Notes under the pieces: generated by a model | What the model was told of the DNA's origin: nothing | Seen by the model: the letters and a program-made list of their open reading frames with translations, nothing else | The model's database searches: none | Translations under genes and position numbers: made by a program | Shown here: positions 26,647-61,810 of the stretch, one piece after another | How the letters are laid out: each line of letters starts with the position of its first letter | Position numbering within the stretch: position 1 is the stretch's first letter | Assembly: GCA_020024755.1 (NCBI GenBank) | Contig: JAHHTH010000004.1 | Location: forward strand, 128,024-192,023 | Reading direction: 5' to 3' | Origin: Mycoplasmataceae bacterium | Lineage (GTDB): Bacteria > Bacillota_I > Bacilli_A > Mycoplasmatales > Mycoplasmoidaceae | Length of the DNA stretch: 64,000 nt

Positions 26647-26678
26647 TTAAATAGTAGAATCAGCAAGATACATTAAAT

Positions 26679-26731
26679 GCTTGATTGAGAAATTAGATGG
26701 ATTTTGCTTGATTGAGAAATTAGAAGGATTT
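26679..26731. repeat. 27-bp tandem duplication
   Basis: GCTTGATTGAGAAATTAGATGGATTTT followed at once by GCTTGATTGAGAAATTAGAAGGATTT. Lies between the RloB-like and HNH genes. Confidence 0.9.
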
Positions 26732-26771: not shown

Positions 26772-27041
26772 ATGCAAATTAATGATACTAAACTTAAGAA
26801 AATTTGAGAAAAAGCACCATACTGCAGTTGTAATCAAATTGATTGTTCTCCAAATAACCACAGATTATGTCCTATATGTGGTGAAAAAATGTTATGAGGT
26901 GCATATTGAGGTCATGTAACACAAAGAAATAGCTATTTTGCTTGAGACATAGATCATATTATCCCTATATCAAAAGGTGAAACTAGTGAACTATCTAATT
27001 TAAGAGCAGTTCATGCTAGATGTAATCGTTCTAGAAAATAA
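26772..27041 (+). CDS. Small HNH endonuclease with CxxC zinc knuckle, cassette 1
   Basis: 89-aa frame (5 TGA=Trp) after GAGGTAG. Contains CPICGEKM, WDIDHIIPISKGE and NLRAVHARCN. About 55% identical by eye to the ORF at 59461-59781. Confidence 0.85.
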
Positions 27042-35408: not shown

Positions 35409-35418
35409 ATAAAACTCC

Positions 35419-36869: not shown

Positions 36870-36980
36870 GGTTATGCTTTTTTTCTATGTAGTGCTAATA
36901 TTTTCAGATGTTCTTATTTGATAATTAAGTTTTTATATTTTTGCCAAAAAATAAAAGAAGTAATTTATAATTTAACCAAT

Positions 36981-38000
36981 ATGTTTATTGGAATTATTTC
37001 GTATGGAGATGTTGATAAAGCAATAGAACAATTTAAGAGAATTTACTCTCCTGACAACTTTTATATGATTCACTACAATAAACGTGATAAAAAAGCCAAA
37101 AAGAATGATTTTTTGCGATTAAAAAATTATTATTCAAAATTTAAGAATGTTATATTTTACTCAAAGCATAAGGTATTTTGAGGCACTAGAACAATTGTTG
37201 GAGTGCAACTGGAAATAATGAAATATTTTTTGAAGCATAGAAATGAACAGTATTTGTTGATAGTTGATGCAAAAACTTCAAATATTATAAATATCAAAGA
37301 AATAGAAAAAATTATTAATAAAAATGGGCCTAATAAAAATTATTATAATTTTTCTGGGTCTGTATATAAAGAAACATTTCCAACCCTTTATGAAGTTAAA
37401 AATAATTATGGTGAATGTTTTTACAATAAGAGATGATATAAGAATACATACCCTACTAATACATCACACTTCAAATTACATTTACGCTTAATTTGTATAT
37501 GGGAAATCTTGACTGATAAAATAGTTTTCAAAAACTTTTTAAAAAGATCTGCACCTGATTTTAAAGAGTGATTTCTTTCTGAATATCATTCATGAAGAGT
37601 TGAACCAATGTATTGGGATTTAATTGCTTCAAACAAGAAAAGAAATATGCCAAAATTCTTGCATGAATGAAAAATCATATATAATTCATTAATGTCCTTG
37701 TTTACAGTTTTAAATAGGGAACAACTTTCAATAATGTTTTCGCACAAGAAGGAACTTAAAAAAATTTTTAGATATTCTAAAGGGATATTGGGACCAGAAG
37801 AGTTTATATTTGCAACTTTGTTTTATAACCTAGTTGATAATGATGAATCAAATTCGTTAAATCTATTATCATATTTTGATATTAGTGATAATGATTCTAT
37901 TAATAAATTAAAAAAACTTAGAAAGAATAATAAAACAATTTTATTCAATAGAAGAATTGATAATTACAAAATTTTTAACAAAGAGTTCCCAATTGTTTAG
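36981..38000 (+). CDS. Putative glycosyltransferase (GT14 / core-2 branching-enzyme-like)
   Basis: Three track ORFs (36918, 37203, 37692) are in one frame, and I checked codon by codon that the gaps are open. The weak family call rests on IISYGD...YMIHYNKRDKK and KVFWGTRTIVGVQLE. Confidence 0.45.
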
Positions 38001-38236
38001 TGTTGTATAAACTTTTTTGAATAAATAATTTTATGTTTACTGATAAATAGTGGTTATATTTGTCTTTCCTAATAAAATTTGAGGTAAAAAGTTTTTGCAA
38101 TGATTATTAATTCATTAAAAGGATAAACAATTTATTCATAATTTAAATTATTGTACATCTCATGAAAATGTAAAAATCAACTTTTTATATATTTAAAAGA
38201 AACATTAACATAGAATAAACATATAATATATGTATT

Positions 38237-39187
38237 ATGATTAACTATATTATATTTGGAGCTAATGGTTTTGTAGGTAGAAATTTTATTTTGAAAAATA
38301 AACAAGATTTTATTTTCGCAATAATTTCTGATCATAATTCTAAAGATAGCTTAAATTCTTTTTTGAATGAAAATAAAATCCAAAGAGTAGAAATTTTAAC
38401 ATTTGATGAAGTGCTAAGTGACTATAAAAAATTTGGAAAACTTGAAAATAAAATTATATTGAATTTAGCTTGAAAAGCTACCTCAGGAGATGCTAGAAGG
38501 GATTGAAATTTACAATTTGAAAATGTAATTACACAAAGGAAAATATTAAATTTTTGTAAAAATATAGGTTGTCAAAAATATGTTGGATTTGGTTCAATTG
38601 CTGAAAAACAAATTTATAGAAGTCTTATGAACAATGAAACTGTAAATTTTAATAGTTATTATGCTTTGGCTAAATATTGTTCACATTTTGAAGCGACTTC
38701 ATTTTGTTCAGAAAATAAAATTAAACTACTTTGATTGCAAATTACTAATACTTTTGGAACATTTGAAAATTCAGCTCGTTTGATTAACACAATTTTAAGA
38801 AAAATTATTACATCACAAGAAAATCATGAAGTACTAGAATTTAATTTTTCGTCTGGACAACAACTTTATGATTTTGTGCATATAGATGATTGCATAGGAC
38901 TTGCATATAAATTTATAGAAACATGGCAACTGGATAACGAAGTACATTTATTGACTAGTAATGCTCCAAGAAAATTCAAGGATTATATCAATGATATTTT
39001 TAAGTTCATAAAATGCGAGAACAAAATAAATTTTAATGAGTCTAATAAAGTTGATATGTTTATGACTAAAGAGGACTACATAGATGATAAAATTAATAAT
39101 ATTAGCTTTTACAAATATAGATGAACATTTAAAGATGCAATAATTGATACATATATGCATATTAAGAAAGAAAAAGGAGAAAAATAA
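38237..39187 (+). CDS. NAD(P)-dependent SDR-family sugar epimerase/reductase
   Basis: Rossmann motif IIFGANGFVGRN and catalytic YxxxK (YALAK). Track ORFs 38237-38473 and 38735-39124 joined through TGAs. The stop overlaps the next ATG. Confidence 0.7.
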
Positions 39188-39954
39188 TGAAAGTTGTAAT
39201 TTTAGCTGGTGGATTTGGCACTAGAATTAGTGAAGAATCAGAATTAAAACCTAAACCAATGATTGAAATTGGAGGAAAACCAATCCTCCTTCATATTATG
39301 GAACATTATTCAAAATATGGGTTTAATGAATTTATCATTTGTGCTGGTTATAAACAATATTTTATCAAGGAATATTTTTCAAACTTTTTTTTGCACAACA
39401 CAGATGTAACTTTCGATCTAGCTAATAACGGTAAAACTATTTATCATGAATCTCATTGTAAGAATTGAAAGATCACAGTTGTTGATACTGGGCTAGAAAC
39501 TCAAACTGCAGGCAGAATTAAAAGGGTCGAAAAATATATTGATGGTGATGAATTTTTATTAACTTATGGTGATGGACTTTCTAATGTTGATTTAGGTAAA
39601 TTAATTAAATCTTACAGTAAAGACAAATTGGTTACTCTTACAACAATTCAACCAGGTGGTAAATTTGGTGTAATTGATATTGATGGTGATTCTAATGTAA
39701 AAGCTTTTAATGAAAAAACTAAAAATGATGGTGGATGAATTAATGCTGGATTTATGATTGTAAATAAAAAAGCATTATCATACATCAAGGATGACTCTGA
39801 ATCATTTGAATTTAATATTTTACCGATTTTAGCAAAAGAAGGAAAAGTATCTTGCTATAAACATGACGGTTTCTGAAAATGCATGGATACATTAAAAGAT
39901 AAAAATGAATTTGAAGAATTGTGAAAGAAGGGCAATGCACCATGAATAAAATAG
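39187..39954 (+). CDS. rfbF: Glucose-1-phosphate cytidylyltransferase
   Basis: MKVVILAGGFGTRISEES.LKPKPMIEIGGKPIL.HIM..Y...G..EFIICAGYK and a ...GFWKCMDTLKDK tail, typical of RfbF/DdhA. Frame joined through TGAs to TAG 39952. Confidence 0.9.
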
Positions 39955-41000
39955 AACTTGAAAAGTTTTATAATGGTAAAAAAATTTTTATAACTGGGTG
40001 TACAGGCTTCAAAGGTTCATGACTTTGTAGCATATTACACAAATTTGGTGCCAAAATCGTAGGATATTCTTTAGATGTTGAACACAATAGTCTATTCTAC
40101 AAATTGCATTTAAACAAAAAAATTAGATATGTAGAAGGGGATATTAGAGATCTTAAAAAAATGTCTAATGTAGTAAAAGAATGTAATCCAGATATTGTGT
40201 TTCATTTAGCTGCCCAACCATTAGTAATAGACTCTTACAAGGATCCTGTGTACACTTATGATGTAAATGTAATGGGTACAGTTAATATTTGTGAATCTCT
40301 AAGACAATTAAATAAGAAAGTTTCGTTTATAAATGTAACAACAGATAAAGTTTATAAGAATATTGAAAAAGATTATTTATACAATGAAGATGATAATTTA
40401 AATGGATATGATCCATATTCTAATTCTAAGTCATGCTCTGAACTAGTTACATCTTCTTACATTAATTCATTCTTTTATAAAACTGATATTATTACTTCGA
40501 CTTGTAGAGCTGGTAATGTAATTGGTGGTGGTGATTTTGCTGCTAATAGAATTGTTCCTGACACTATTAACTCAATTATCAAAAACGAAAATATAACCTT
40601 AAGATGTCCAAACTCTATTAGACCTTATCAGCATGTACTAGAACCTGTTTTTGCTTATGTTGATTTGGCTATGAAGCAATATAATGATAAGAGTGTTGCA
40701 AGTTCATATAATATTGGACCATCTAAACAAGATTGCATTAGAACTATTGACATTGCTACTAAGATTATTGAAAATTGAGATTCTAATATCTCAATTAATT
40801 ATACAGATGCAATATATCATGAGGCAGGTTTATTAATGTTAGACAACTCTAAGATATCTAGGTCTATTGAGTGAAAACAAACATGAAGTATAGATGAAGC
40901 CATCAAACACACAACAGAATTTTACAAAAGGACTTATAATGGCGAAAATTTTGAAGATGTGATTAATGAGCAAATTAATTTATTCTTAGGAGAAAAATAA
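39942..41000 (+). CDS. rfbG: CDP-glucose 4,6-dehydratase
   Basis: KIFITGCTGFKGSWL (TGA=Trp), YSNSKSC (YxxxK), RAGNVIGGGD, IRPYQHVLEP. Contains track ORF 40104-40778. Confidence 0.88.
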
Positions 41001-41557
41001 TGAAATTTGAACTTGTAAAAACTAAATTTAAGGATGCTTATTTAATTAAATATTTTAGAGCTAATGATAATAGAGGGGCATTGATTAAAGATTTTAACTC
41101 TATCGAATTTGAACAATTATTGGGATATAAGTTTAATCTAGTTGAAAATTTTTACACTATATCTAAGAAAGGAGTAATTCGAGCTATTCACTTTCAAGAT
41201 ATAAAACCCCAAAATAAAATAATTAGAGTTGTTAAAGGCAAAATCTATGACGTTATAGTAGATCTTAGACCTGACTCTGAAACTTTTATGGAATGAGAAG
41301 GTTGATACTTATCTGAAAATGAGAATATTGAGTTATATGTTCCAAAAGGATTTGGACATGGTTACTTAGTAATTGAAGATTCTATTGTTTCTTATAAAAC
41401 AGATGAAAACTTCTATGCACAATATGATACTGGAATTAGTTGAAATGATACTGACTTAAATATAAAATGGCCTCTTGACCAAGTTGAGAATGAAGTTATT
41501 ATTTCTGACAAAGATAAGAGTTTACAATCTTTCAAAACATGAAAATTACAACAATAA
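41000..41557 (+). CDS. RmlC-like cupin sugar-nucleotide 3,5- (or 3- / 5-) epimerase
   Basis: DNRGALIKDF, RAIHFQ, K.IRVVKGKIYDVIVDLR, GFGHGY. Translationally coupled (TAATG) to rfbG. Confidence 0.85.
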
Positions 41558-41795
41558 CTTTTTATTATTTAAATCAATTGTTTATTTTTCAAATTACATA
41601 TATTCATAAACTGCACTTTTGTATTAAGTAATATTAAAGATCTTTTAAATTAAGTTATATATAAATAGATATAACAATTATACTTAATATTATGGTTAAT
41701 ATTATGTAAATATTAGTAAAATATATTAGTAACTATAATTAGTTTTAATTGCTGCTGTTATCAAATGTAATTTAAGGAAATAAGGAAGGTTAATT

Positions 41796-42977
41796 ATGAA
41801 AAAATTAAATTGTCTAGTAATAACAAATTACAATTATGAATTTTGTGGTGGAGTTGAAAACTTTAATAGAATGTTATATCGTTCATTTCCAAATATTAAT
41901 TTTTTTGAATTTCCAATATTTACAAAAGAGGTATATTGCGATATTGAATTTAAAAATTTAACAAAAGTTGAAATATCACAAAATATACCATGATTGTTAG
42001 ATTACGATAATTGACCTAAAAAAATTTTTGGAAGTCGCGCATTACTAATTTTTAAAAGATTGTGAGCTCTGAAGAAATGTTCAAATCAAACAGGAAAAAA
42101 ATTAGAAAAAATAATTAAGAACAACAATATTGATATAATTCTTTTATCTGGTACATCGTTTTTTTGCAAAAAATTCTTTAAAAAATATAATAGAAAAATA
42201 TATTTTATTCAACATGATCATATTTGCACAATAAATACAAATTATTATTATGATAATGCTAAAAAATTATTTATACACTATAAGAAAAATTTTAAACAAA
42301 AAATTGCTCATAGATATTATTCATATGATTTTCCAAATATTATAAATAATTTTATTTGTAATGATAATGAGTCTCTAAAATTATTCTTAGAATGATATCC
42401 AAATAAAAATGTTTATTGTGCGCCATTAGCTTCAAAGTTTGAACCAGAATATACTACAACAGCAACTAAAAAGTATGATTTTATATCGCCTATAAGAAAT
42501 GCTGAGAAAAAGAATCCAGATAAAGTTTGAACTATTTTCAAATGTTTAGATAGAAAAGGTTTAATTATAGGTGATGAACACGGAAATTCAAGTTGAGGTA
42601 ACATTGAAAAGAAAGAAGCAATAAGTGATATTAATGAAGTGAAACAAATGTATAGTAAATCGAAATTTATGTTTTTAGCTTCTGATTATGAAGGTTTTTC
42701 ACTAGCAGCTTGTGAAGCGTTATCATTAGGATTGCCTTGCATCTTGCCTAACACATTCCCTACAGCTAAATATCATGTTGGTGAAAATAATGAAAGAGGT
42801 TTTGTGTATGACTTCTATGATACAACTGAAAATATAGTAAGAAGCATTGATGATTACATTAAAACAGTTAATTATGCTAAGGTTTCAAAAAAATGTGTAG
42901 AATTTGCAAAACAAAACTTTACAACTGAGATATTCAAAAAAAATTGGTCAAAAATTTTCAATGAAGCATGTAAGTAA
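41796..42977 (+). CDS. Glycosyltransferase family 4-like (GT-B)
   Basis: Track ORFs 41796-41993 and 42639-42977 are in one frame, and I checked that the gap is open. EX7E-type motif YEGFSLAACEALSLGLP. Paralogue of 47387-48523. Confidence 0.75.
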
Positions 42978-43015
42978 CTATTTTGTTGATTATTTATAAA
43001 GTGGAGGAAAAGTGA

Positions 43016-44044
43016 ATGAAACAAAGAATAAAGAACAAATATACTATTGGTATATCAGCATATAATACTGATATTAGTTTATTGAAAAAATGTATCGAAA
43101 GTGTTAGAAAACAAACATATCAAAATTATGAATTAGTTATTGTTGACAATAATTCAGATGATCAAGAATTGAAAAAATTTTATAAAAATTTGAAATTGAA
43201 AGACAATGAAAAAATCGTATATTTACCTAAAAATATTGGAATATATGGATCTAGAAATACTGTTATAGATAATTCGGAAGGTGATAGAATAGTTTTTTTA
43301 GATTCAGATGATTATATTTCTCCTAACTTCTTGCAAACTGTAGAAGAAAAAATGATTGATTGCAATGTATTACATTTTAATTATTATAAAATTGAAAAAA
43401 ATAATATAATAGCCAACGATTTCTTTTTTGAATATGGTGAACATTTTTTATATTCTACTACAACATGATCATTTGTGGTTGAGAGAGATTTTTTAATAAG
43501 AAATAATATTAAATTTTTTAAAATTGATCAAAATGAAGATGAATGCTTCTTGATGCTAATGTTAATTGAACCTAATTTAAAATTCAAATCAATAAGTGAT
43601 AAGTTATATTTTTATAATAAGTCTAACGAAAATGCACTTTCTAAAAAGTTTAACCCAATCAATTTGCTAAAAGCTATGAATCAAATTATTAAGCATGTAT
43701 TAGATGTCATGCATTCTAAAAAAATTAAGAAAATTCCAAATATTTTTTTCTATCATTTTTATAGATATATTTCTGTTTTTCCAATATGAAAGATAAGAGA
43801 TGGAGTACCATATAAATTATTTAGAAAGAATATAAAATATTTTAGAAGAATGAATAAAAAAGTATTTAGTATTAAAAATACAGAATTAGGATTAATTAAT
43901 ACTTTAGCAAGAAAATATTACTTATATTTTCCTAGATTAATATATAAAAAATATAAACCTAAAAATGATGTGAAGTCATTGTTATTAAATATTCAATCGA
44001 AACTAGACAATTTAATTGTTAAGGTTGATTCTATTTCGAAATAA
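43016..44044 (+). CDS. Glycosyltransferase family 2
   Basis: Three track ORFs in one frame. ISAYNTD...LKKCIESVRKQTYQNYELVIVDNNS and the DxD motif FLDSDD. Confidence 0.8.
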
Positions 44045-44274
44045 TAATACCAATTTTTATATTTATTTTTTTAGAATATTTATCATTTGATGAATTTAAA
44101 TAGCTACAATAATTTTTAAAATTACAGCAGATTAGATTTATAAACATAACAAAAATAAATAAAGTTAAGAATCATTTCAATTGCTGCTATTATCAGTAAA
44201 AGTTGAAATATTAGATTGTTAACTAGAAATGATATATTACGACATTTGAAGGATGTATAATAATTAGGAGTTCA

Positions 44275-45369
44275 ATGATGAAAAAAATTTTGATAATTAG
44301 TGAAACCAGTGAAGAAATAATCAATTCTCGTGTTGGCGGTATAGAAGTATATATTTACAATTTAAGAAAAGCATTAGAAAGCGACTATAATATTGAGATA
44401 ATTTCGTATGAAGAACTTTACAAAAAATTTGAACTTAAGTATAAAAAAGAAAATTCCTGTGAAAAAGTTATTAAATTAATTAAATGCCAATATACATGCC
44501 CATACTTAGATAATTTTGATCTAATCATCAATTCATCTTATGGAAAAGTACCAGAAAAATATCTTAATAAAACCTTATTTGTTATACATAATGATTTATC
44601 TACTTCTCACTATCAAAAACATAATATTCTTTATTATAATGATGAATATAAATCTTCAAGCAAAATTAAAAAATTCATTTTTAACATTTTAGAGAAATCA
44701 TTATATAAAAAAACTTTTTTATATCACCCAAAAGTTGTAACATTCAACAAATTTCATATATCACATGGTTTAAAACGTAAACAAACCATTTTTGGTTTAG
44801 TACCATTAGATAATAATATGAGTTTTGATTATAATGATTTTAAATCTAAGAAAAACGAATGTCTTTATATAGGAAGGTTGAATGATGAACAAAAAAACAT
44901 GAAGTTATTAGATGAGATTGCTAAAAAAGTTAGTTCTATTATAAATGTTGTAGGGGATGGACCTGATAAATTTTTATTAGATTCAGATAACTTTCACTTC
45001 TATGGATGAGTTGGTCAATCGGACTTTGCAAAATTAGGTATAAAAGATAGCAAAGTTGCATTATTTACATCAAATTATGAAGGATGTTGTATTTCAATGC
45101 ATGAAGTTATTAATTTAGGAATTATTCCAATTACTACATTCTCATCTCCTGAGGTAAATGTTTTAATTCCTAAACACCTTAAAAAATTATTAATTATAAA
45201 AGGGAAGAATAAAGCAACTAAATTTAAAAAATCAATAGAATTTATTTTATCACTATCTGAAAATGAATATAATAGTCTACGCTCTCAGATTAATGAAAAT
45301 TACAAAAAAACATATGGTCGCTCATTCTCAGATAATTGAAAAGAGATTGTTAAAAAAGAATTTGAGTAA
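44275..45369 (+). CDS. Glycosyltransferase (GT4-like, divergent)
   Basis: Track ORFs 44275-45009 and 45097-45339 are in one frame. KILIISE...VGGIEVY N-terminus and YEGCCISMHEVINLGIIP. Confidence 0.6.
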
Positions 45370-45589
45370 TTTAAAGTTTTATAATAATTTATAAATCTCT
45401 AAGTTCTTTAATAAGCTTCCCTATTTTGTCGATGATGTATTGAACTTAAATAAGTTATGATAATTCATTAAATAATATAATAAGTTAACATAATTTATCT
45501 GAAGTTTAAAGGGTAAATAGTTGAAACTCAATTTATTTTGTTTTGCATTTGTTAATATACATATCAAATATTGTATAATCTTATATATT

Positions 45590-46456
45590 ATGAAATTTAA
45601 TCAATTTAAAAGCAATCTCAGAATAGTTTTAAAATTTAGCATGGTAGACATTAAGAGAAGGTTTAAAACATCCATTTTCTCTTGGTTATGATTAATTGTT
45701 GGCCCAGCTCTTTGCATTTTTACATATTGATTTGGTCTAGGTTCTATTAGCGGTGATCAAGTAGATACAGTTCAGTACTTTATGCCAGATGGTATACGTG
45801 AATATAGATGAATAGTATGAATGCTTATTGGGACATTTACATGACAATACTGTGGAGATATGTTAGTTAGTGGCCCTTTTGCATGTTTGAGTTATTCATG
45901 AATGCCTAAAAGTTTTGGTTTATCTCCAAGTGTTCCACCATTTATAATTAATTTAAGTAGAATAATTACTGGTATTCCATGAATTGTACTTGCTTGAATT
46001 GTTGCTATAGTAGTTAATCTTAATGATCCTTCTTCATTTAACTCAGATGTGAATTTATATTCACTAGAAGTGCCTGTTGTTATAATACTATCAATTATTG
46101 CAATGAATATTTATTCATATGCACTTTCTCCATTAGCTTCAATATCTAAAGATTTTAGAGGGATAATTGGTATGATTCCAGGTTTGCTTACATGAATTAC
46201 TAGTGTTTTTATCCTTCCTAACGCTTTCATAAACTTACCACATGATGCAAGATATATTCTACTTCAAATTAACCCATTCAACTTTATAGTAAATGGGATG
46301 AGATCCACTATGTTAGGATATAGTGAATTATTTACTCCTAATCCATATATGACTTGATACTCAATTATGTCATTCTTTTTATGTTTTGCTATACTATTAG
46401 GAATTGGTTATTTCTTAAATAAAACTTCTAGAAAGTTTATTATTGATATTATTTAG
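45590..46456 (+). CDS. ABC-2 type polysaccharide/teichoic-acid exporter permease (Wzm/TagG-like)
   Basis: 288-aa frame with many TGA=Trp and six hydrophobic segments. N-terminus DIKRRFKTSIFSWLWLIVGP. Lies directly upstream of the cognate ATPase. TATAAT at 45573. Confidence 0.75.
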
Positions 46457-46464
46457 AGGTTCAT

Positions 46465-47211
46465 ATGAAAAGTAAAATGATGCATAACAATAAAATTGAT
46501 ATTGAGTTTGATAAGGTTTGTAAAAACTATTTCCTTTGTAAGAATGATTGAGAAAGATTAAAAACACTATTATTTTCTTGAGAACGTAAAAAAAGAATTA
46601 GACATACATTAGATAATATTTCATTCAAAATCCACCAAGGCGAAAAGGTTGCTATAGTTGGTAAGAATGGTGCTGGAAAATCAACAATATTAAAAGTAAT
46701 GGCTGGTATTACTATACCTAGTAGTGGAAAAGTATTAATTAAGAGAAAGTTATCTACATTATTAAATGTAGGTGCAGGATTTGAACCTGAATTTACTGGT
46801 AGAGAAAATGTATATATTAGAGGAACGCTATTAGGATTCTCAAAAAAAGAAATTGATAAGGCTCTTGATGATATTGTGGAATTTTCTGAAGTCGGTGAAT
46901 ACTTTGATATGGAAATGAAAAGATTTAGTTCTGGTATGTCTTCTAAATTGGGATTTGCTATCAATTTATTCTTAAATCCAGAAATTTTACTTGTAGATGA
47001 AGCGTTATCAGTTGGTGATGCTAAGTTCAATGCAAAGGCAAAAAAAGCAATCAATGACTTGTCTAAAAAAGAAAACTTAACATTAATAATGGTTAGTCAC
47101 AATGAAGAAACATTAAAAGGTTTATGTGATAGAGGAATATATATTAAAGATCATAAAGTTGCATTTGATGGTCCTATTAAAAAATGTTTAGAAATCTATG
47201 CAAAAGATTAG
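46465..47211 (+). CDS. ABC exporter ATP-binding protein (Wzt/TagH-like, short form)
   Basis: Walker A GKNGAGKST, signature FSSGMSSKL, Walker B LLVDEALSVGD, H-loop MVSHN. Contains track ORF 46699-47211. Confidence 0.9.
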
Positions 47212-47217
47212 GTGATC

Positions 47218-47310
47218 ATGAGATTTTCTATTCCCATTTATAAATATCCTAGTATATTAACTTGTGAAAAATCAAGACCAATTAAATTGAAAAACTTTAC
47301 CAATTTTTAG
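47218..47310 (+). pseudogene. Truncated N-terminal remnant of a GT2 glycosyltransferase
   Basis: 30-codon ORF MRFSIPIYKYPSILTCEKS... resembles GT2 N-termini (compare MRFFDIIIPSYNSDKLLTRCIES at 48556) and then stops. Confidence 0.35.
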
Positions 47311-47386
47311 ATTGTTAAATAATAAGTATATTAGTTATTAAATCATATAGAATGTTTTGCTGTCGATAAATGATATAATCACATAT

Positions 47387-48523
47387 ATGAATGTATTAGT
47401 GATAACAACATGTAACTACAACTATTTAGGTGGGATAGAAAATTATAATAGACTAATGTATACATCTTTTCCTGACATAAATTTTTACGAAATAGCTACA
47501 TTAGACAGAAAATTTAAAAAGCATTTTAAATTTAATAATGTTGAGAATATTGAAACAAGCATAAATTTAGATCCATATTTTGACGTTGAACTAGATTCAG
47601 CTTATCTTGAATTAAATAATGCGATGGATTTAAGAAAGAATAATAAGAAATTGTCTAAAAAATTGGAATCAATAATTAAGGATAAGAAAATAGATAAAAT
47701 ATTGATATCTGGATATGCTTTCTTTGACAAAAGATTCTTGAAAAAATATAGAAATAAAGTGATTTTTATTCAACACCTTCATATTAATTTTTTGAATTTG
47801 AGATTGTACTATTCTTTTGATCATAATAAATTTTTGGAAAGAAATGATTCTATAAAAAGAAAAATATTTAATAGGATTTTTGAATTTGACTTTGCAAAAT
47901 ATTGCTATAATTTTGTTTGTTGCGACCCTTACTCTGTAGATGAGTTAAGAAAATTTGCGAAGAATAAAAACATAGATTGAACACCTATAATGTCTAGACT
48001 TGTAAATAAGAATGAAGCTATTAGCAAAAAATATGAATTTATATCACCAATTAGAAATTCAAAAGAGAAATCTCCAAAAATGATTAGAAATATCATAAAT
48101 AATATCGGTAATAACTCACTAATTATAGGAACAGATTTTAAAGATAAGAAAGATAATTTTGTGCAATACAAGAGTGCTGTTTCAAATGAAAATGAATTAG
48201 CTTCACTTTATTGCAAATCAAAATATTTGCTTTTAGCATCTAGATATGAAGGGTTTTCAATTGTGTCTGGTGAAGCATTATCTTTAGGTTTACCATGTAT
48301 ACTCCCAAATACTTTTCCATCTGCAAGATATTTAGTGGGAAATAATGAAAGAGGATATATATATAATTGATATGATGACATTGGCACTATAAGCAAAAAT
48401 ATTCAATCTTATATTCAAGGAATAAATTATGAAATTGTGTCAAAAAGATGTATAAAATTTGCAACTGAAAATTTAGATAATAAAACATTTAAAAATAATT
48501 GAGAAAGAATCTTAAAAAGATAA
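47387..48523 (+). CDS. Glycosyltransferase family 4-like, paralogue of 41796-42977
   Basis: ATG 47387 lies just after TATAAT 47373. Track ORFs 47357-47980 and 47990-48370 are in one frame. Shares VITxxNYxxxGGxENxNRxxYxSFPxINF, KKYEFISPIRN and YEGFSIVSGEALSLGLPCILPNTFP with its paralogue. Confidence 0.75.
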
Positions 48524-48555
48524 TTTTATTTTATTGAAATTGTTATAATTTTTAT

Positions 48556-49473
48556 ATGAGATTTTTTGATATTATTATTCCTTCTTATAATTCAGATAAA
48601 TTATTAACTAGATGTATTGAATCTATAAGTGATGATGTATTTAAAATATCAAATGTCATTGTTGTGGATGATGGTTCAAAAGTTGATCAAAGTAAGTTTA
48701 TTCCAAAAAACAAACTCAATAAAATTGTTTTTGTAAAACAAAACAACTCAGGACCTAGTGGAGCAAGAAACACAGGAATAAAAGTATGTAAAAATAAGTA
48801 TATTATATTCGTAGACTCAGATGATATTATAGATTCCAACAAACTATTAAATTTACATAAGCAACTTATTACATTGAACATTGAACCAGATTTAATTAGG
48901 AATGGTTTTATTTGAAAGACACAAAATAAACAAAAATTGATATCTCATAAAAAACCTAAATTATATACAAGCAAAGAGAAATATTTATACAAAAACTTTA
49001 TTTGCAATTTATATTATTGATCCTCATGAACACATATATATAAAAGAGAATTTATATTAAGAAATAATTTATTTTTTAAAGATGGGATTATTGCAGAAGA
49101 TTTAGAACATACAATTAGATCTTACAGATATTTAAATACAATTTTTACTTCAGATATTGAATATTATATTTATGATAATACAAATGTAAACTCCATAACA
49201 TACCAAAGCACCAAAGATTTATCTGAGAATGTTGTAGAAATTATCAAGCAAAATTATGGAAATAAAGCCAATGATATAGCCTTGAATGACTTTATAAATA
49301 TTCTTTATAAGTGGAAAGAAAAATATATTTCTAAGGATAATAGATTCATTAAGAATATTAATTGGAAATTAATGTTAATACCATTTCATTGTTTAAGATA
49401 CAAAACTGGTTTTGTTACATCAGCTTATAAGTTGTTTATTCAAGCTCTTAAAAGTAAAAGAAAGGATTATTAA
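48556..49473 (+). CDS. Glycosyltransferase family 2
   Basis: FDIIIPSYNSDKLLTRCIESI, VVDDGS, GPSGARNTG and the DxD motif FVDSDD. I checked that the frame is open through TGAs. Confidence 0.8.
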
Positions 49474-49475
49474 TT

Positions 49476-50441
49476 ATGAAAATTTCTGCAATATTACCAT
49501 TTTATAAATTAGAACCATGATTACTTCAAAGATGTATAGATTCTATTTGCTCTCAAAACTACAAGGATTGAGAATGTATCATAGTAGATGATGGTTCTCC
49601 AGAAAGATTAGATTTAAAATCATATAATTTGTGGGGCTATGACAAAAAATTTAAACTCATAAGAACTGTAAATCAAGGAAGACCTCAAGCTAGAAATACA
49701 GGTTTTTTGAATTCTACAGGTGATTTAATATGATTCATAGATCCTGATGATTATATTAGACCATTAGTTGCATTTGACAAAATTATCAAAATGTTCAAAT
49801 CCAATGATGTTGATATTGTAAATTTTAGTTTTTATGAATTCACTGATTTTGAAAAATCAGAATCAAAAAATAAGTACACTGGTATAGTTGGGAATAATTC
49901 AGAACTTGATATTACTTTACTTAATGGTTGAAGAACTGAATGAAGAAATGTATATAAAAGAAAATTCTTATTAGAAAATAAAATAATGCACCAAAAATAC
50001 AAAACAATATACGAAGATGTATATTGGGATTTATTAGTAAAAACATATGTGAAAAGTATTTATCTCTCTGATGAATTTCTATATTTCTATGATAGAAGAA
50101 GACACACAAGTATTACAAATACAAAAATGGGTACAAAAAAAATTCAGAATATATTTAGTGTCAATATCACAGAAGCTTATCAATATATAAAACCAGATAG
50201 TGATTCATTATTTTATCTTCATTTGATTTATTATTTTGCTTCACTTCCATATTTAAAAGATAAGGAAATAAAGAAGAACATTGTTCACTATTTTAAATTA
50301 AATAAACAAATTAAATTATCCTGAAAGAAAAAAATTTCACTATTTATTATTAGATCTTATATATTGACACTATTTTACAAATTTACTTTACCACCAACAG
50401 TTTATATATTAACAATCTTGAAACATAAGATAAATTCATAA
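49476..50441 (+). CDS. Glycosyltransferase family 2
   Basis: ISAILPFYKLEPWLLQRCIDSI, IVDDGSP, GRPQARNTG and the DxD motif FIDPDD. Contains track ORF 49986-50324. Confidence 0.8.
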
Positions 50442-50806
50442 TTTCAGTCCGTTAATTGAATTGTGTTACATACAAATAATTTTGGTTTGTTTAATTTGAT
50501 AGAGTTAATAACATTTGTTGCATTCAATGGATTTAATGCAGAAAAAATGTTTAATAAATTAAAAGGAAAATTATCTAACGAAGGCAATTTCATTAAGTGC
50601 AGATGCTGTTGTTAATACAAAATATTACCAGTATGTTCTGGAACTACTTATACAGCTATTGGTACAGTTGTTAGATATAAAAAAGATTAGAATAATATGA
50701 AATAACTTTTAGTAATGTAATAAATGTATATTTTAATTTATATGTATTTATATGTATTTTACTTCTAATAGGTCTTTGGATTATAATAATTTTTAGAGGG
50801 TTTATT

Positions 50807-51370
50807 ATGGCAAAATCAACATGTTTTATTTCATATTCTCATGAGAAACAGAATAAAAAGAAATTTAATGCCTTATGTAATATGATAAATAATTCCAAAA
50901 AATTGGATAATTATTCTGAAAGAGATGATAAATCAAAACTAACTGATGAATCTATTTGATCTTATTTATATAAAAGAATATCTGGTGCAACTATTACAAT
51001 TGTATTACTTACAAGAGACCTATTCTATGAAAATAAAGATAAGATAAATTATAAGAGGGGGAGTTTTTTAGAATCAGGATGAATATACAATGAGATTTGT
51101 GCCTCACTTAAAAACAAAAAGAATAATAGTTTAAATGGAATTATATGTGTATTCGATGAAGCTGTTGAAAAAATAATAGTTGATGGAAATAATATTATTT
51201 TAGATAGACTTCCAGAAATTCTTGCAATGAATGCAGAATATATTGTTTGAGCTAGATATGATGATTTTATGAACAATCATTTATCATACATTAATTCATC
51301 TAAACAAAAACGTCTTAACCAAATAAAATTGACAAAATACAAAATCAATTACGGATTACACAAGAGGTAG
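50807..51370 (+). CDS. TIR-like domain protein (DUF1863 / ThsB-like), copy 1
   Basis: 187-aa frame through TGAs reading CFISYSHE, ESIWSYLYKRISGATITIVLLTRDL, ESGWIYNEICASL and LNGIICVF. Confidence 0.78.
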
Positions 51371-51490
51371 AAAATGATTGATAAATTTCTGTCAATTTTA
51401 ATAGTTTATGAGTGATATTAATTTATTGATAGATAACTAAATAACTTGAAATTTAAATGATATATAACTATTAAAGAGGTATTTAATTTA

Positions 51491-52033
51491 TGGCTACAAC
51501 ATGTTTCATTTCATATTCTCATGATAATATCAATAAAGAAAAAGTAACAAAAATTTCAAACATAGTTAATGGCTCTTCGAAGCTAATTAATTTTTCTGAA
51601 AGAGAAGATAAATCTATGTATTCAGAAGAAACTATATGAAAATATTTGCATGATAGAATTGCAGGATCAACATGCACTATTTTGTTCCTCACTGAGGATT
51701 TACTAACATATAATAATTACAAGTTAGGATATGTTAGAAATAATTTTATTGAATCAGGATGAGTTTATAATGAGATATCTGCCTCATTAAGGGATTGAAA
51801 AGATAATAGAATAAATGGAATCGTTTGTGTAGTAGAAGATCATCTTGCTAGTTATATTGCAGATTCTTCAGGCAAAATTGATGAGAACAAACTTCATGAA
51901 ATACTTGCTGTCAATTCTGAATATATTGTATGAGTTATGTATAGTGAATTTCTTAAAAATCCACATGAGTTTATTGATATTGCAAAAGCGAAAAGAGATG
52001 AACAAATAAAGTCGGGGGAATTCCGCCTATAAA
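51491..52033 (+). CDS. TIR-like domain protein (DUF1863 / ThsB-like), copy 2
   Basis: 180-aa frame reading CFISYSHD, ETIWKYLHDRIAGSTCTILFLTEDL, ESGWVYNEISASLRDW and RINGIVCVV. Confidence 0.78.
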
Positions 52034-52640: not shown

Positions 52641-53252
52641 CTATCTATTATGAAAATCATATTTTATTCAATATGTATTATTTTTTATATGATCATCTCT
52701 TTTTCTTCTTGCATCATCCAATCAGCTATCTGTTTTTTGCATAAATTGTTCATATGTACAGACAGTTATGAAACTAGTCGTTGGATTATACTTACAATTA
52801 TCTATTGATGCACCTACTTCTCTAACGCCTTTCATATTATTTATATTTGCATTAATTATTTCTCTTTCATGTTTATATAAACTATTTTTATATGATTTAT
52901 TTGATGTGCAATCTACAATAAGCAAACCATTTATTCTGTTATTATCTCAGTCCCTTAGGGAACATGATATTTCTTTATATACCCAACCTGATGACATAAA
53001 ATCATTACCTGGTAATAATTTATGTCTATTTGTCGATATTAAATCATCTGTAAGCAATAAAACAGTTACTGAAGAACCTTTGATTCTATTCTGTAAATAT
53101 TTTCATATTGTTTCATCTGAACAATGAGATCTATCAACTTTTTCACTATAATCATATGCCAATCCCTTTTCCGTCATATGAGATACAACTCTATCTTTTA
53201 ATTTTTCATTTTCATTTGTGAACGAAAATGATATGAATGTGTTATTAGCCAT
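52641..53252 (-). CDS. TIR-like domain protein (DUF1863 / ThsB-like), copy 3
   Basis: ATG 53252 after AGGAG. 203-aa frame containing track ORF 52722-52925 and reading FISFSF, ETIWKYLQNRIKGSSVTVLLLTDDL, SSGWVYKEISCSLRDW and RINGLLIV. Confidence 0.78.
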
Positions 53253-54922: not shown

Positions 54923-54963
54923 AAATTTGTAAAATATGTGTTATAGTATTTTTGGAGTGTACC

Positions 54964-55413
54964 ATGGACTTAAAAAGAAGATTAAGTGATTTACATCTAG
55001 GAATTACTGAATTATCAGAATACATTCATATTTCTAGACCTACATTGTATAAGTTCATTTCATTATATGATTCAAATAATAAAAAAGATGTTCCTAACAA
55101 CATTACTAAATTGTTTGATTTTATAATGAAAAATGAGCTAATAGGTAAAAATAATGTAATCAATTATATTTTCAATGAAATTTTATTAATCCGTAAGAAT
55201 GATAATGAATTAATTAATCAATTAGTTTTTTTTGATAAGAATTCAAAAAAATATAAATTCATTGAGCATATAGTTTCGCATAATAACATGGACTCCATAG
55301 TTTACTTTTTGGTTGATATTATAAACATTAGTTCTAAAACTAAAAGATCTGATAGTGAAAAAAAGAAATTAGATATCTACGAAGAAATACTAAATGAAAT
55401 TAAAGAGGGGTAA
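54964..55413 (+). CDS. Putative helix-turn-helix DNA-binding protein
   Basis: ATG 54964 lies 7 nt after GGAG. The N-terminus LGITELSEYIHISRPTLYKFI looks like an HTH. Ends 6 nt before the OLD gene. Confidence 0.55.
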   Translation: MDLKRRLSDLHLGITELSEYIHISRPTLYKFISLYDSNNKKDVPNNITKLFDFIMKNELIGKNNVINYIFNEILLIRKNDNELINQLVFFDKNSKKYKFIEHIVSHNNMDSIVYFLVDIINISSKTKRSDSEKKKLDIYEEILNEIKEG

Positions 55414-55419
55414 TTTATT

Positions 55420-57264
55420 ATGAAGTTTAAAACAAGTAAGTTTATATTCAAAAATTTTAGAAATATTGGAATTAAAAGAGAAGAGTATTTTAATATTGGA
55501 AATTATTCTGAAGGATGTGGAAATAAAAATGGTGATTTGGTCATTATAATTGGAGCAAATAATACCGGTAAATCAAACATTATAGATGGGATTTTTAAGT
55601 TTGCAAATAATGCAATTGATATTAATAGAGATAAAACAAATTTAGATTTTGATGAAGATAGAAAGAATATATCTATAGATTTTGAGAATAGCAAAACTCA
55701 AATAAAAAACTGCAACAACAAGATCGATATTATTAGTAATGATAATAAAGAACGTCTTGAATTACTAAAAAAAGAGTTCATAGAAATTGCAAGAGAAAAA
55801 TTTTCTAAAGAAGAATTTGAATGTATGAAAATGTATATACCTAATGAGTCACTAGATGGTTTCCTTGATGTAGTTCAAAATATTGGATATTCTTTGAGCA
55901 TTAATTGTGGGTACTTTGGAGGTCCTTATAGTTATCGCTACAATAATATTTCAATTAACAAAACTAATTTGTCAGAATTTTCTTCCTTTACTAGCAATTT
56001 TAGAAAACTATATGATAGTGTTAAAAACAAAAAAATTCCTTTTAAAGTATTAAAATATAGCGATCAAAACCAATTTAGTAATTCAGATTTAAGAATATCA
56101 TTAGATGCAGCATATATAAAGCAAAACAATTTTTGAAGAAACTTATTTGCAAAAATTGATTTTAATGTTGAGGAACTACAAAATTCAGCACAAACTGCTA
56201 CTACTCAGACTAATTATGGAATCCTTGAAAAACAAGAAGCAAAGATTAATAAATTATTAGAAAATAAAGTATCAAAAAAATTTAATAAATTATATACATT
56301 TGGAAAAACAAATTATGAATTTAAAGTTAGAATAGAAAGCAATAATATTAATTTGTTAATATATGAAAATAATGAACCTATTACGCTAGAATATCAATCC
56401 ACAGGATTCAAGTGATTCTTCACACTTTACTTTAATAACATTTTAGAAACTTTAACTAATGGAGATATTTTACTACTAGATGAACCAGGAGTTTATCTTC
56501 ATGCTAACGGACAAATTGAATTAAGAAAGTTTCTTAAGCAATTAGCTAAAGAAAAAGACATTAATATAATACTGACAACTCATTCTCCATTCATGATTGA
56601 TTTAGATTATCTGGATGAAATTAGAACTGTAACTAAAGTGAATGGCTGTATTAAAATCAATAATAAATTTTCTCTAATTGATATTCCAAATCCCGATGAA
56701 AGTGATGATCCAGATAGTATAGATGTATTAAATGAAATTAAGTCAGCTTTAACTATTAGTAAAAATGTGTTATTCAAGGAAGAATCTAAAGTATTCTTTG
56801 TTGAAGGTATTACAGACTATAACTATTTAACTGGAATGAAACAAATATTAGGGGAAGAGTATAAAGATTTAATCTTTCTTCCGATAAATGGTTTAGGTAA
56901 AGATAAGAAGCAACAACAATTGATAATTGAAAAAATAGTTAAATTATGAAAATATGAACCAATTATTTTAACAGATTCAGATGGTGAAAATGGGGTTGGT
57001 AAAAAATTCAAAAAATTAGTAGAAGAACTAAAAGCAGGATTAACAGTTTTGAATCTTGATGATTTGGTTGAATCTTTCAGTGGCACAATTGAAGATGTAT
57101 TCTCTGAGAATGATAGAAAAAGAATATGCTTTGATAGTGAAGGAAAATTACAAAAAACATTTAATGCATCTGCATCATTTAAAAAATATGCTGATTCACT
57201 TCAATTAGAAGAAGAAACTATTAATAACTTTAAAAAAATATTTGATAGTTTAATGTTACAGTAA
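55420..57264 (+). CDS. OLD-family nuclease (ABC-type ATPase + C-terminal Toprim)
   Basis: Three track ORFs in one frame (614 aa), with gaps checked. Walker A GANNTGKSN, QSTGFKWFF, Walker B LLLDEPGVYLH, TTHSP. Toprim glutamate FFVEGITDYNYL and DxD ILTDSDGENG. Confidence 0.85.
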
Positions 57265-59460: not shown

Positions 59461-59781
59461 TTAATTATTACTTAAAATGTCAAATAACTCCTTTGTAGTA
59501 TATCCTTCGTCTGAATGATCACTATTACACTTTACGTGAACAGCTCTGAGATTTTCTAATGCATCAGTACCACCTTTGCTTTTAGGAATAATGTGTTCTA
59601 CATTTCATGAATAAAGTGTATTTCTCTTTGATTCATTTCCCCAATAGCAACTTCATAGCATTTTACCACCGCACAATGGACATGTTCTGTGGTTTTCAAC
59701 GGTGCAATCTTCTTGGTTGCAAGTGCAATAGTTTGCTTTATTTCATATTTTTCTTAATTTTGTTTCATTATACTTTGGCAT
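59461..59781 (-). CDS. Small HNH endonuclease with CxxC zinc knuckle, cassette 2
   Basis: ATG 59781 lies 7 nt after AGGAGG. 106 aa reading TKLRKIWNKANYCTCNQEDC, CPLCGGKM, WNVEHIIPKSKGG and NLRAVHVKCN. Paralogue of 26772-27041. Confidence 0.85.
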
Positions 59782-59801
59782 AATCATGCCTCCTATAATT
59801 A

Positions 59802-60392
59802 TTATTTGTTGTTTGTGTTTTTCTTTTTCTTTAGTAATTCAACTATATCAATAAAATTCGATATTTCTTTATTTTTTAAAATATTTAATCTAGACTCCCA
59901 CTGGTGTACTAGTTTTTCATCTTGTTTAATTTTCTTTTTTATAAATTCTATAATTCATTTAGTATTTTCTACTTTTTTGTCTTTATCGAAATGTTTGCCA
60001 TTATTTTTGAATATCTTATAAAATTCTTCATCAATTCATTTCTTAGTTTTATTTGAGTTTATATCTTGAAAGAAACATAATAAGATTAACTCAAAACATG
60101 GATCAGTTATAACGAAATCAATTTGTCACTGTCTACAACGTACTAAGCAATCATCTATCTTTTTATCTTCAAGGTTATCTTTATCAATAATTATATATTT
60201 TTCACAGCAATCTTTATGCTCTCCATCTATATTATTGTTTCTGATGCTGCCTGAAATTAACTTGGAATGTTTTTTACATTTTCTTAAAATACTATTTCTA
60301 TAAACTATATCCTTAAGGAATGTTATAAATATTTCTTCACATTTACCTTCATATTCAATTGAGAATGCATTTAGATTTTTATTTTTCATCAT
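59802..60392 (-). CDS. RloB-like (Toprim-related) protein, cassette 2 (short form)
   Basis: Track ORF 60126-60392 extends through TGAs to TAA 59802 (196 aa). Contains EYEGKCEEIF, YIIIDKD and ITDPCFELILLCF. Confidence 0.72.
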
Positions 60393-61587
60393 CTAATCAC
60401 CGTAAAGCATAATTAATATAAGGGTCATATCCTATCTTTCCTGATAGGTATTGATTTGAGAATGAACATTTTCCTCTAATAGTGCTTCCGAATTCATTAA
60501 GACATACAACATTAGTGAACTTAGACTCATTAAGAGCTGCAAAGTATATTTCATCTCTTCTGAACAAGTCTTCACTTAATGTGTTCATATCGTGAGATGT
60601 ATAAATTAATTGAGCTGTACCAGGATTCTTCTTAAACATTTTTATAATATATTCAAGGATCTTAGTGTGTAAGTTTGCATCTAGCTCATCAATTAAAATG
60701 ATTGAGTTATTTTTTAATCCAGTAACCATGATAGTTAATAGTAATAGAAGTTTTCTAGTACCAGATGACTCGTAATTATATGCAACCTCAAAATTTTCTC
60801 CATACAATGATTCTTTTACAAAGGTAATTTTATCCGGGTTAGTATTTCCCTTAGGATTCTTAATGTCAATGATGTTAATATCCAATTCCTTAAGTATAGT
60901 TAATATTTTGTCTTTGTTATGCATTAATATTCCAATATTTAGACAAGATGTTCGAAATGGCATTAGTAATGAAGGCATTAATACATTACTAACATTTGTT
61001 GTATTGTCGAAAATTATTATTTTAGAAAATTCATTTTGCAACATCTTGATTTCTTTAGAAGGGAACATATTAAAAAAATTAAATAGTGAAACATCTAATG
61101 ATGCAATGTCAATTTTTCCAAAATTTGTTTTGAGAACATCATCAAGATAAAATGAAATTTTATCTCCATCATTAGTTTTAGAAAAAATAACTCTTTCCTT
61201 TTTGTTTTGTTTAATTACATATTTTTCTTCGATGATCTTATCATCAATTGAAATTGAATAACATAATGTTTCTAAATTATCTGTTAAAAACTCTATGTAT
61301 CATGAGATGGGTTCATTAATAGTTTCTTTATTTCTGAATCTTTTAGTTTCATCTATGTATACTTGTAAGTTAACTCTATCCGTTTTAACAAGTACAATTA
61401 AATAAAAGATAGAGCTTAAAAAAGCAGTTTTACCTCCTCCATTAGGACCATACATTGAAATAACAGGTAAAATCTCCCCTTTGTTTAATGTTTCACTAAA
61501 GGGTTTTAAAGATTTTGAAGCATATAGACTGATTTCTTCTTCATTTTGTATCGATAAGAAATTTTTAACTTTGTATCTAGCTAACAT
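60379..61587 (-). CDS. AAA15/ABC-like ATPase, cassette 2
   Basis: Track ORFs 61300-61587 and 60397-61068 are in one frame; I checked the gap codon by codon. Walker A GPNGGGKTA, ESSGTRKL, Walker B ILIDELDANLH, TSHD. Reads through TGA 60397 to TAA 60379, overlapping the RloB-like start. Confidence 0.85.
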
Positions 61588-61810
61588 ATATTTTCTCCTA
61601 AATAAATATATATTTATAGTTTAATTATACATATTTTAGCCAAAAAAACAAGACAATATGCAAAAGATTTGTATATTTTCTTAACTATCTTGCAAAAAAA
61701 CAATGTTATTTGCAAAAAAGTGCAAAATATTTGCACATTTATTAGCAAATTTAATAAATTATTGCTATAATATTGGTGAATGGGTCCTTTCATTGGAAGG
61801 AGGTGATTGT

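Follow-up and report, generated by a model that had tools for sequence, protein, structure and literature searches.

A three-gene variant of AbiL with a coupled small HNH nuclease gene in a Mycoplasmataceae genome and across Mollicutes

Does a small HNH nuclease gene that follows an ABC-type ATPase gene and an RloB gene belong to the same functional unit, or does it simply share their transcript? The question is raised by a stretch of 64,000 nucleotides (hereafter the window) of contig JAHHTH010000004.1 from a Mycoplasmataceae bacterium (assembly GCA_020024755.1, positions 128,024 to 192,023 of the forward strand), in which two such cassettes occur. The second of them, cassette 2, extends over positions 59461-61587 of the minus strand in the order ATPase (A2), RloB (B2) and HNH (H2), and the first, cassette 1 (A1, B1, H1), over positions 24347-27041 (Table 1); no further copies of the ATPase, RloB or HNH families were found elsewhere in the window. 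The components and the pairing of an ATPase with a Toprim protein are already known as AbiL, and what appears to be new is the coupled third gene encoding the HNH protein. The reading favoured here, to which we assign a probability of about 0.6, is that cassette 2 is an AbiL-class three-gene abortive-infection operon with a dedicated small zinc-finger HNH as second nuclease effector. The three-gene arrangement itself is far beyond chance, being present twice in the window and, in the same order, in 22 non-redundant loci elsewhere, and it constitutes an AbiL variant that is conserved across Mollicutes.

Code 4, in which TGA is read as tryptophan, applies to the whole window (1-64000); its guanine-cytosine (GC) content of ~25% is of the Mollicute type, and a ribosomal-protein operon lies upstream of the ~25% GC part. 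Across the window, open reading frames (ORFs) of at least 100 aa add up to 9,776 aa with translation table 11 and to 21,549 aa with table 4. Each gene of cassette 2 contains two to three in-frame TGA codons, and all three are fragmented by ORF calling with table 11, the ATPase into pieces of 95 and 223 aa and RloB to a piece of 88 aa; table 4 was used instead. ORF lists and tools based on table 11 split most genes of the window. Standard pipelines misread code-4 genomes, and under table 11 the cassette resembles pseudogene debris; annotation tools would also label the locus as AbiL, overlooking the third gene. The original prediction had described three minus-strand genes, with the ATPase and RloB lengths and the spacing given in Table 1, and these are present, though under code 4 only; the motifs quoted for them (GPNGGGKTA, ILIDELDANLH, EYEGKCEEIF and ITDPCFEL) were all found in the table 4 translations. 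The coordinates confirm the 14-nt overlap of the ATPase and RloB genes, and also the 20-nt gap with an AGGAGG ahead of the HNH gene, using the second ATG (59781) as its start. This start agrees with an independent database gene call (P0133, 106 aa) and with that of the ortholog P0001; the alternative ATG at 59787 would give a protein of 108 aa and a gap of 14 nt to RloB.

The ATPase of cassette 2 has intact Walker A (GPNGGGKT), Walker B (ILIDELD) and H-loop (SHD) motifs. Its best defence model is PADLOC AbiLi, by a wide margin over other models, and its similarity to SMC_N and RecF is weak. A match to a model named AriA (PDLC02980) is an end-to-end alignment with a generic profile of AAA_21 length. 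Sequence searches of the PDB retrieved no match for the cassette ATPase or RloB, and an NCBIfam scan returned no specific family names.

RloB proteins consist of a Toprim domain with a conserved catalytic Glu and a DxD motif (PMC12065111). B2 matches the Pfam family RloB (PF13707) with an E-value of 2e-6 and 28.6 bits, just under the gathering score of 31.5, and PADLOC AbiLii with an E-value of 1.4e-6; within the compact-RloB family, 11 of 13 proteins match Pfam RloB, the best at 6.8e-12. The motifs of B2 are E15-G16, D70-x-D72 and P98-x2-E101, and in the alignment of the compact family E15, G16, D70, P98 and E101 are invariant and D72 nearly so. An AlphaFold2 (AF2) model of compact RloB, built from a four-sequence alignment, reached a predicted local distance difference test (pLDDT) score of 46, and the Toprim assignment rests on sequence. 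Aligned with hhalign, the compact-RloB profile matches B1 over 37 columns around PCFEL (E 2e-4) and gives no match to the Toprim part of the OLD-like protein nearby. Neither B1 nor B2 matched AriB or DUF4435 in family and defence-model scans, and a word-indexed search for B2 retrieved 4 matches, hardly beyond orthologs. In addition, B2 has a family-specific set of residues, C39/H42/C62-C63. Among compact Mollicute RloBs, C39 and C62-C63 are invariant, and K40 and H42 are invariant in the four closest relatives. The whole set (C39/K40/H42/C62-C63) is without counterpart in the long RloB of cassette 1, whose Glu motif and DxD are separated by an insert of ~115 aa. The extra Cys/His residues may form a metal site that replaces this helical insert.

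The small HNH proteins match Pfam PF01844 with 40.2 bits (H2) and 35.9 bits (H1). The N-terminus of H2 forms a zinc-ribbon-like region (W-x5-C-x-C-x4-C-x4-H-x2-C-x2-C), followed by WNVEH...NLRAVH-x2-CN. Both the core residues (D/E-H, N, H-x2-C-N) and the CxxC...HxxC zinc site are kept, leaving the catalytic His, Asn, His and two Cys/His clusters intact. Residues W15, C21, C23, C28, H33, C36 and C39 are invariant in 18 of 18 AbiL-linked copies. Because the pattern used to retrieve these copies (see below) fixes W, D/E-H, N-L and H-x2-C-N, the conservation of those residues in the retrieved set reflects ascertainment and is not evidence; the N-terminal Cys/His positions alone are independent of it. 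The AF2 model of the HNH protein (pLDDT 86.5) has a minimal beta-beta-alpha-Me fold, and its closest solved structure is the ~100-aa Geobacter HNH nicking endonuclease Gme (4h9d), other solved neighbours being the HNH domain of EcoKMcrA, ZRANB3 and the HNH of Cas9, and the viral ones small phage HNH endonucleases. Similarity to small stand-alone HNHs is at the level of the fold only, with template modelling (TM) scores of 0.4-0.58 and Foldseek E-values of at least 4e-4, and PtuB is absent from the top 50 Foldseek PDB matches of the model. By sequence, the HNH retrieved from the PDB generic HNH matches alone, such as ZRANB3 and Cas9. A tblastn search with H2 gave one weak plasmid match, with end-of-genome HNHs of mycobacteriophages matched in the core HNH only, and the word-indexed search for H2 gave 1 match. 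An exhaustive phmmer search, for which P0001 (83% identical to H2) served as query, yielded 127 matches, of which ~45 are full-length relatives of 80-110 aa that share an N-terminal W-x2-A-x2-C-x-C ... C-x3-H-(R/K)-x-C-x2-C ahead of the HNH core. P0006, a protein of 1832 aa with apparently 24 HNH stretches, was rejected as a relative, the match being an artefact of Cys/Trp-rich repeats.

Together with PARIS and OLD, AbiL is counted among systems combining an ABC ATPase with a TOPRIM protein (PMC11464382, PMC13064643) and is described as two-component (PMC13064643, PMC10440598, PMC11464382), although a 2026 review that gives it as such also states that systems with more components may be overlooked (PMC13064643). 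Cassette 2 resembles AbiL of Lactococcus plasmids and RloA-RloB of Campylobacter in that an AAA_21 ABC-type ATPase gene is followed by an overlapping gene for a Toprim-like protein of the RloB family; also, AbiLi and AbiLii are the best PADLOC models for the two proteins, and the Toprim Glu and DxD are kept. It differs from two-gene AbiL in having a third, conserved and translationally coupled HNH gene, in the compact size of its RloB type (176-208 aa) with the extra invariant Cys/His set, and in its Mollicute host with code 4. In Septu, AAA15/21 ATPases partner with an HNH protein (PMC10440598), and both the ATPase and the HNH activities are required, with cleavage of tRNA-Tyr (PMC13096335). 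The likeness to the cassette lies in an ATPase of the AAA15/21 group encoded together with an HNH nuclease. However, A2 scores 42 bits on the best PtuA model versus 189 bits on AbiLi, the cassette HNHs have 89-108 aa whereas the PtuB profiles matched have ~213-216 positions, and a Toprim protein stands between ATPase and HNH in the cassette. PARIS, in which an AriA hexamer sequesters AriB until its release leads to cleavage of tRNA-Lys (PMC11464382), shares the logic of a sensor ATPase with a Toprim effector and is the best-understood model for AbiL-like systems, but the cassette RloB is not a DUF4435 protein, B2 is without AriB match, and PARIS is without HNH. Cleavage of tRNA is common to PARIS AriB, P2 OLD and Septu PtuAB (PMC11464382, PMC12445682, PMC13096335). 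Stand-alone HNHs, such as Gme and those associated with phage packaging, are alike in size, minimal beta-beta-alpha-Me fold and CxxC...HxxC zinc site. The cassette HNH family, in contrast, has an N-terminal W...C-x-C...C...H extension and is embedded in AbiL operons (22 loci) rather than beside terminase genes in Mollicutes. A third coupled HNH gene in AbiL was not described in the searchable literature on AbiL, PARIS, Septu or Menshen.

To see how the HNH family is distributed, a degenerate DNA pattern covering two core HNH motifs was run against GTDB genomes, IMG/VR and JGI metagenomes, and the retrieved loci were annotated with code 4 and purpose-built hidden Markov models (HMMs) for the cassette families; an alignment-based HNH search of genomes, made before the motif pattern, had returned no confirmed locus. 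The scan recovered 57 non-redundant low-GC (Mollicute-type) HNH genes, of which 22 are linked to RloB, 32 are solo or in tandem and 3, at contig edges, are uninformative. The 22 linked genes lie directly downstream of RloB, usually overlapping it, and an AbiLi-type ATPase precedes wherever upstream DNA is present. Overlaps between ATPase and RloB genes measure 8-22 nt in most linked loci (the values of -50 and -68 nt in two loci arise under the first-start rule for gene starts), and the spacing between RloB and HNH genes ranges from -41 to +31 nt across intact linked loci, with 20 nt in cassette 2. Throughout the linked loci the ATPases measure ~400 aa and the RloBs are compact (176-208 aa); cassette 2 thus corresponds to the standard Mollicute form. 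It had been described at first as a compact copy, yet it is not a reduced one, the compact form being the standard type and cassette 1 the singleton. Neighbourhoods of the linked cassettes differ, one of them (L003) lying between scpAB and an NTP-transferase gene, and the closest named genome with a similar cassette is that of Mesomycoplasma moatsii (L049).

Several observations bear on whether the third gene belongs to the unit. The start and stop codons of RloB and HNH genes overlap in most linked loci, and coupled expression is therefore implied. All three genes are under purifying selection, with proportions of nonsynonymous and synonymous differences (pN/pS) between cassette 2 and its ortholog L001 of 0.16/0.73 for the ATPase, 0.17/0.75 for RloB and 0.10/0.63 for HNH. 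Regarding co-evolution versus module swapping, closely related cassettes pair alike in the ATPase, RloB and HNH trees, where congruent sister pairs are L013/L044, L031/L049, L027/L056, L045/L046 and L001/window. Mantel correlations are 0.90 between ATPase and RloB, 0.50 between ATPase and HNH, and 0.61 between RloB and HNH, each with p ~5e-4. On the HNH tree, AbiL-linked versus solo status changes 4 times (2-9 in bootstrap replicates), as compared with 13.1 +/- 1.7 switches under permutation of the labels, which never gave 5 or fewer in 5000 permutations.

The two cassettes of the window were also compared with each other. Both contain the same families (AbiLi, AbiLii/RloB and one small-HNH family), which speaks against the idea, raised with the original prediction, that unrelated ATPase/RloB families happen to sit near a common HNH gene. 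That the HNH proteins align well, with ATPase and RloB far more diverged, was substantiated by pairwise alignment (58-60% versus ~23% identity). In detail, H1 and H2 share 58-60% identity, 60% over 84 aa (1e-41); A1 and A2 share 34% over the C-terminal 130 aa, 29% at the N-terminus and ~23% over aligned profile columns; and B1 and B2 share 33% over 42 aa around PCFEL, the sole alignable part, with ~23% identity. Also, B2 is 116 aa shorter than B1, close to the ~115 aa initially estimated. Mean identities among distant compact cassettes follow the same order (HNH 57%, ATPase 38%, RloB 33%). Because the cassette 1 pairs lie on the general regression of ATPase on HNH identity (+0.3 standard deviations), which compact cassettes define, the uneven conservation is taken as a general family property, namely a family-wide difference in rate with HNH as the slowest component, and alone it would be no proof of module swapping. 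A recent intragenomic exchange between H1 and H2 was considered and rejected, as H1 shows 48-59% identity with every AbiL-linked HNH and the cassette 1 pairs are on trend.

A better source of evidence for module recombination comes from the relatives of cassette 1. A1 is 35% identical over its full length (219 bits) to the ATPase of a Bacillus mycoides plasmid (p77), and against compact-cassette ATPases it reaches in no case more than 80 bits. Likewise, residues 192-244 of B1, the C-terminal region that contains PCFEL, match only the RloB of the Bacillus mycoides plasmid, and the word-indexed search for B1 found no relative but itself. This AbiL-like plasmid locus, the closest plasmid relative of A1, encodes a long RloB and differs in being without HNH, none being present within 2 kb. 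As A1 and B1 match the Bacillus plasmid locus and not the compact cassettes, the same HNH family appears attached to two ATPase/RloB lineages. This is independent evidence suggesting that the two cassettes of the genome descend from different AbiL lineages, one compact and one Bacillus-like with long RloB. Such an association is what would be expected of a recruitable effector; an autonomous gene that tends to settle there could give rise to it as well.

A number of results weigh against the reading of cassette 2 as a three-gene operon, and several of them favour an alternative in which ATPase and RloB form an ordinary two-gene AbiL and the HNH is an independent nuclease that shares the transcription unit and has no part in the AbiL mechanism. 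Solo and tandem HNH copies outnumber the linked ones (32 versus 22), so that the HNH can persist without AbiL, and they often occur amid housekeeping genes (glpK/gyrB, an SDF symporter, an FNT transporter), others being found near defence or mobile genes (a Panacea toxin-antitoxin pair, GmrSD_N, a restriction-endonuclease domain, Mob_Pre). At L038:4220-6366 (Candidatus Mycoplasma liparidae, RHHX01000002.1), RloB has decayed between an intact ATPase and an intact HNH; it is broken by in-frame stops and a frameshift, and its C-terminal frame runs directly into the HNH ORF. Decay of this kind could plausibly turn a linked HNH into a solo one. In cassette 1, the 125-nt spacer between RloB and HNH contains the 27-nt repeats and a TATAAT, which could allow separate transcription of H1; the repeats and TATAAT are possibly its operator and promoter. 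The HNH model has as its structural neighbours small HNH nickases that act autonomously and HNH endonucleases of phages, and its similarity to the Septu nuclease is marginal, H2 matching PtuB models with E-values of 0.0026-0.0087 and H1 not at all. Also, host taxonomy may account in part for the way contexts cluster on the HNH tree, and the sample was ascertained through the HNH, leaving AbiL pairs without HNH outside its reach. Nevertheless, this alternative is weakened by the overlapping start and stop codons of RloB and HNH in most linked loci, by the ~4 context switches where 13 are expected, by the like pairing of related cassettes in all three gene trees and by the repetition of the association with two AbiL lineages, and we consider it rather unlikely, though one to be taken seriously.

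The same solo copies could be seen as the mark of a selfish homing-type endonuclease that inserts beside diverse genes, RloB among them. Its patchy distribution over many genomic positions, its distant similarity to phage HNH endonucleases, a copy that adjoins a Mob_Pre gene and the tandem duplications (three copies in L099 and two each in L022, L091, L119 and L124) would fit such an element. The tandem solo HNHs belong to Mesoplasma-like loci, whose arrays share a conserved neighbourhood without ATPase or RloB nearby. Nonetheless, the proteins of 89-108 aa have no recognisable sequence-specific DNA-binding module, neither target duplications nor terminal repeats were found flanking H1 or H2, no copy was found in introns or inteins, and close copies within one genome, which recent mobility would yield, are missing, H1 and H2 being only 58-60% identical. 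Together with the strong purifying selection, the co-divergence with neighbour genes and a phylogenetically stable context, these features render a homing origin very unlikely.

A more tentative extension of the favoured reading treats the small zinc-finger HNH of Mollicutes as a trans-acting effector that is portable between systems. Two or more unrelated AbiL lineages would have recruited it independently, other sensors perhaps too, and the solo and tandem copies would act as a nuclease pool shared by several sensors; we regard this as doubtful but conceivable. The candidate for another sensor is a GmrSD_N-only protein at L048, without the usual C-terminal nuclease. In that locus (~4550-6900 of L048, from the uncultured Mycoplasma metagenome-assembled genome CAMQYZ010000003.1), a solo HNH lies ~300 nt downstream of the genes for this 379-aa protein, which has GmrSD_N (DUF262) alone, and for a protein with a restriction-endonuclease domain; the small HNH might take the place of the nuclease present in cis in full-length GmrSD. 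If the portable-effector proposal is true, ATPase-Toprim-HNH would be a dual-nuclease defence system, and no ABC-ATPase defence family has been described with such an organisation.

Returning to cassette 2 as an AbiL-class operon with two nucleases, a mechanism can be proposed. By analogy with PARIS AriA and Septu PtuA, an oligomer of the AbiLi-type ATPase would act as infection sensor and keeper. It would have two nucleases as effectors, the compact Toprim protein RloB and the HNH, both presumably inactive until a phage trigger. Once released, they would cut nucleic acid (tRNA and/or DNA), and infection would be aborted. In this scheme we infer the defence function, the complex formation, the trigger, the substrates and any joint action of the HNH with ATPase and RloB beyond co-transcription. 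The original prediction of a conserved nuclease output coupled to variable sensing modules stands as regards the HNH, the best conserved component, and not as regards RloB, itself of nuclease type (catalytic Glu, DxD); on this analysis the cassette would rather comprise two nuclease effectors and one ATPase sensor. Defence systems based on ABC ATPases (AAA15/21) are at present described as consisting of one sensor and one effector, either Toprim (PARIS, AbiL, OLD) or HNH (Septu). If the coupling is functional, such sensors can control two nucleases, for example one for tRNA and one for DNA, and the cassette would offer a compact natural system for studying effector holding and release, adding to the thin knowledge of immunity against phages and mobile elements in Mollicutes.

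Table 1. Coordinates of the two cassettes, their signals and neighbouring genes in the window.
Feature	Positions	Strand	Basis or remark
Cassette 1 ATPase (A1), AbiLi-type, 453 aa	24347..25708	+	PADLOC AbiLi 250 bits; Pfam AAA_21 104.8 bits
Cassette 1 long RloB (B1), 312 aa	25708..26646	+	Pfam RloB 71 bits
Two tandem 27-nt direct repeats (TGCTTGATTGAGAAATTAGA[T/A]GGATTT), then TATAAT	26678..26731	+	No other occurrence in the window; chance expectation 0
Cassette 1 HNH (H1), 89 aa, same small-HNH family	26772..27041	+	Family profile; alignment to H2
Long ORF cluster between the two cassettes	31000-50500		
ThsB-like TIR gene	50807..51370	+	PADLOC ThsB, 70-80 bits for the three paralogs
ThsB-like TIR gene	51490..52032	+	As above
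Hydrophobic, likely membrane protein, 165 aa	52135..52632	-	Between ThsB-like genes
ThsB-like TIR gene	52641..53252	-	As above
OLD-family ATPase-Toprim protein, 614 aa	55420..57264	+	PADLOC AriA, Old and GajA matches
Cassette 2 small HNH nuclease (H2), 106 aa	59461..59781	-	Stop at 59461
AGGAGG ribosome-binding site within the 20-nt RloB-HNH spacer	59789..59794	-	7 nt ahead of ATG 59781
Cassette 2 compact RloB/AbiLii Toprim-like protein (B2), 196 aa	59802..60392	-	14-nt overlap with the ATPase gene
Cassette 2 AbiLi-type ABC/AAA_21 ATPase (A2), 402 aa	60379..61587	-	2 in-frame TGA; Pfam AAA_21 79.8 bits; PADLOC AbiLi 189 bits
Shine-Dalgarno AGGAG	61595..61599	-	7 nt ahead of the ATPase ATG
Putative extended -10 promoter-like element TGTATAAT	61624..61631	-	36 nt upstream of the ATPase start
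Terminator-like hairpin, palindromic	61720..61736	.	Scored on both strands; 7-bp stem, 3 GC pairs, T-run on the minus strand
AAA_14 + DUF4143 protein, 471 aa	62291..63706		PADLOC candidate system PDC-S01, 372 bits

The expression signals of cassette 2 are in agreement with a single transcript. The element TGTATAAT is without a good -35 and was hence missed by the promoter consensus scan. The terminator-like hairpin upstream of it would shield the cassette from minus-strand transcription that arrives from further upstream, and the terminator scan found no minus-strand terminator inside cassette 2. Taking together the overlaps, the short spacing, the upstream -10 and Shine-Dalgarno elements and the absence of an internal terminator from that scan, co-transcription of the three genes, as first proposed, is plausible.

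Cassette 2 lies in a defence island that extends over 50.8-63.7 kb of the window. Three paralogous ThsB-like TIR genes are found there, two of them separated by the gene for a hydrophobic protein; no ThsA (SIR2/Macro) was recognised in the neighbouring ORFs scanned, and the cluster may be an atypical Thoeris. The gene for the OLD-family protein is directly preceded by a 153-aa ORF without family match (window 54952-57264 for the two). This setting bears on a last alternative, in which the cassette is a housekeeping module for DNA repair or recombination made up of a RecF/SMC-like ATPase, a Toprim protein and an HNH nuclease. The weak SMC_N/RecF similarity of the ATPase and the L003 copy amid housekeeping genes are in line with it. 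On the other hand, the AbiLi and AbiLii defence models match best by far, the cassette is sporadic in Mollicutes with variable flanks and two divergent copies in one genome, decayed copies occur (L023, L030 and L038), and cassette 2 shares its island with the ThsB-like TIR genes, the OLD-family protein and PDC-S01. We consider a repair or recombination role very improbable.

Small HNHs matching the family HMM also occur outside Mollicutes, on predicted viral contigs. In six IMG/VR and metagenome contigs with a GC content of ~0.44 (L064, L066, L073, L075, L085 and L089), a 91-aa HNH matched by the family HMM lies in a conserved gene block. The same search pattern also matched a larger HNH of 140-147 aa in Acidobacteria-type contigs (L019, L040, L041, L057, L060, L128 and L132), which is preceded by a gene of 479-481 aa wherever the upstream region is in view and represents a different conserved pairing.

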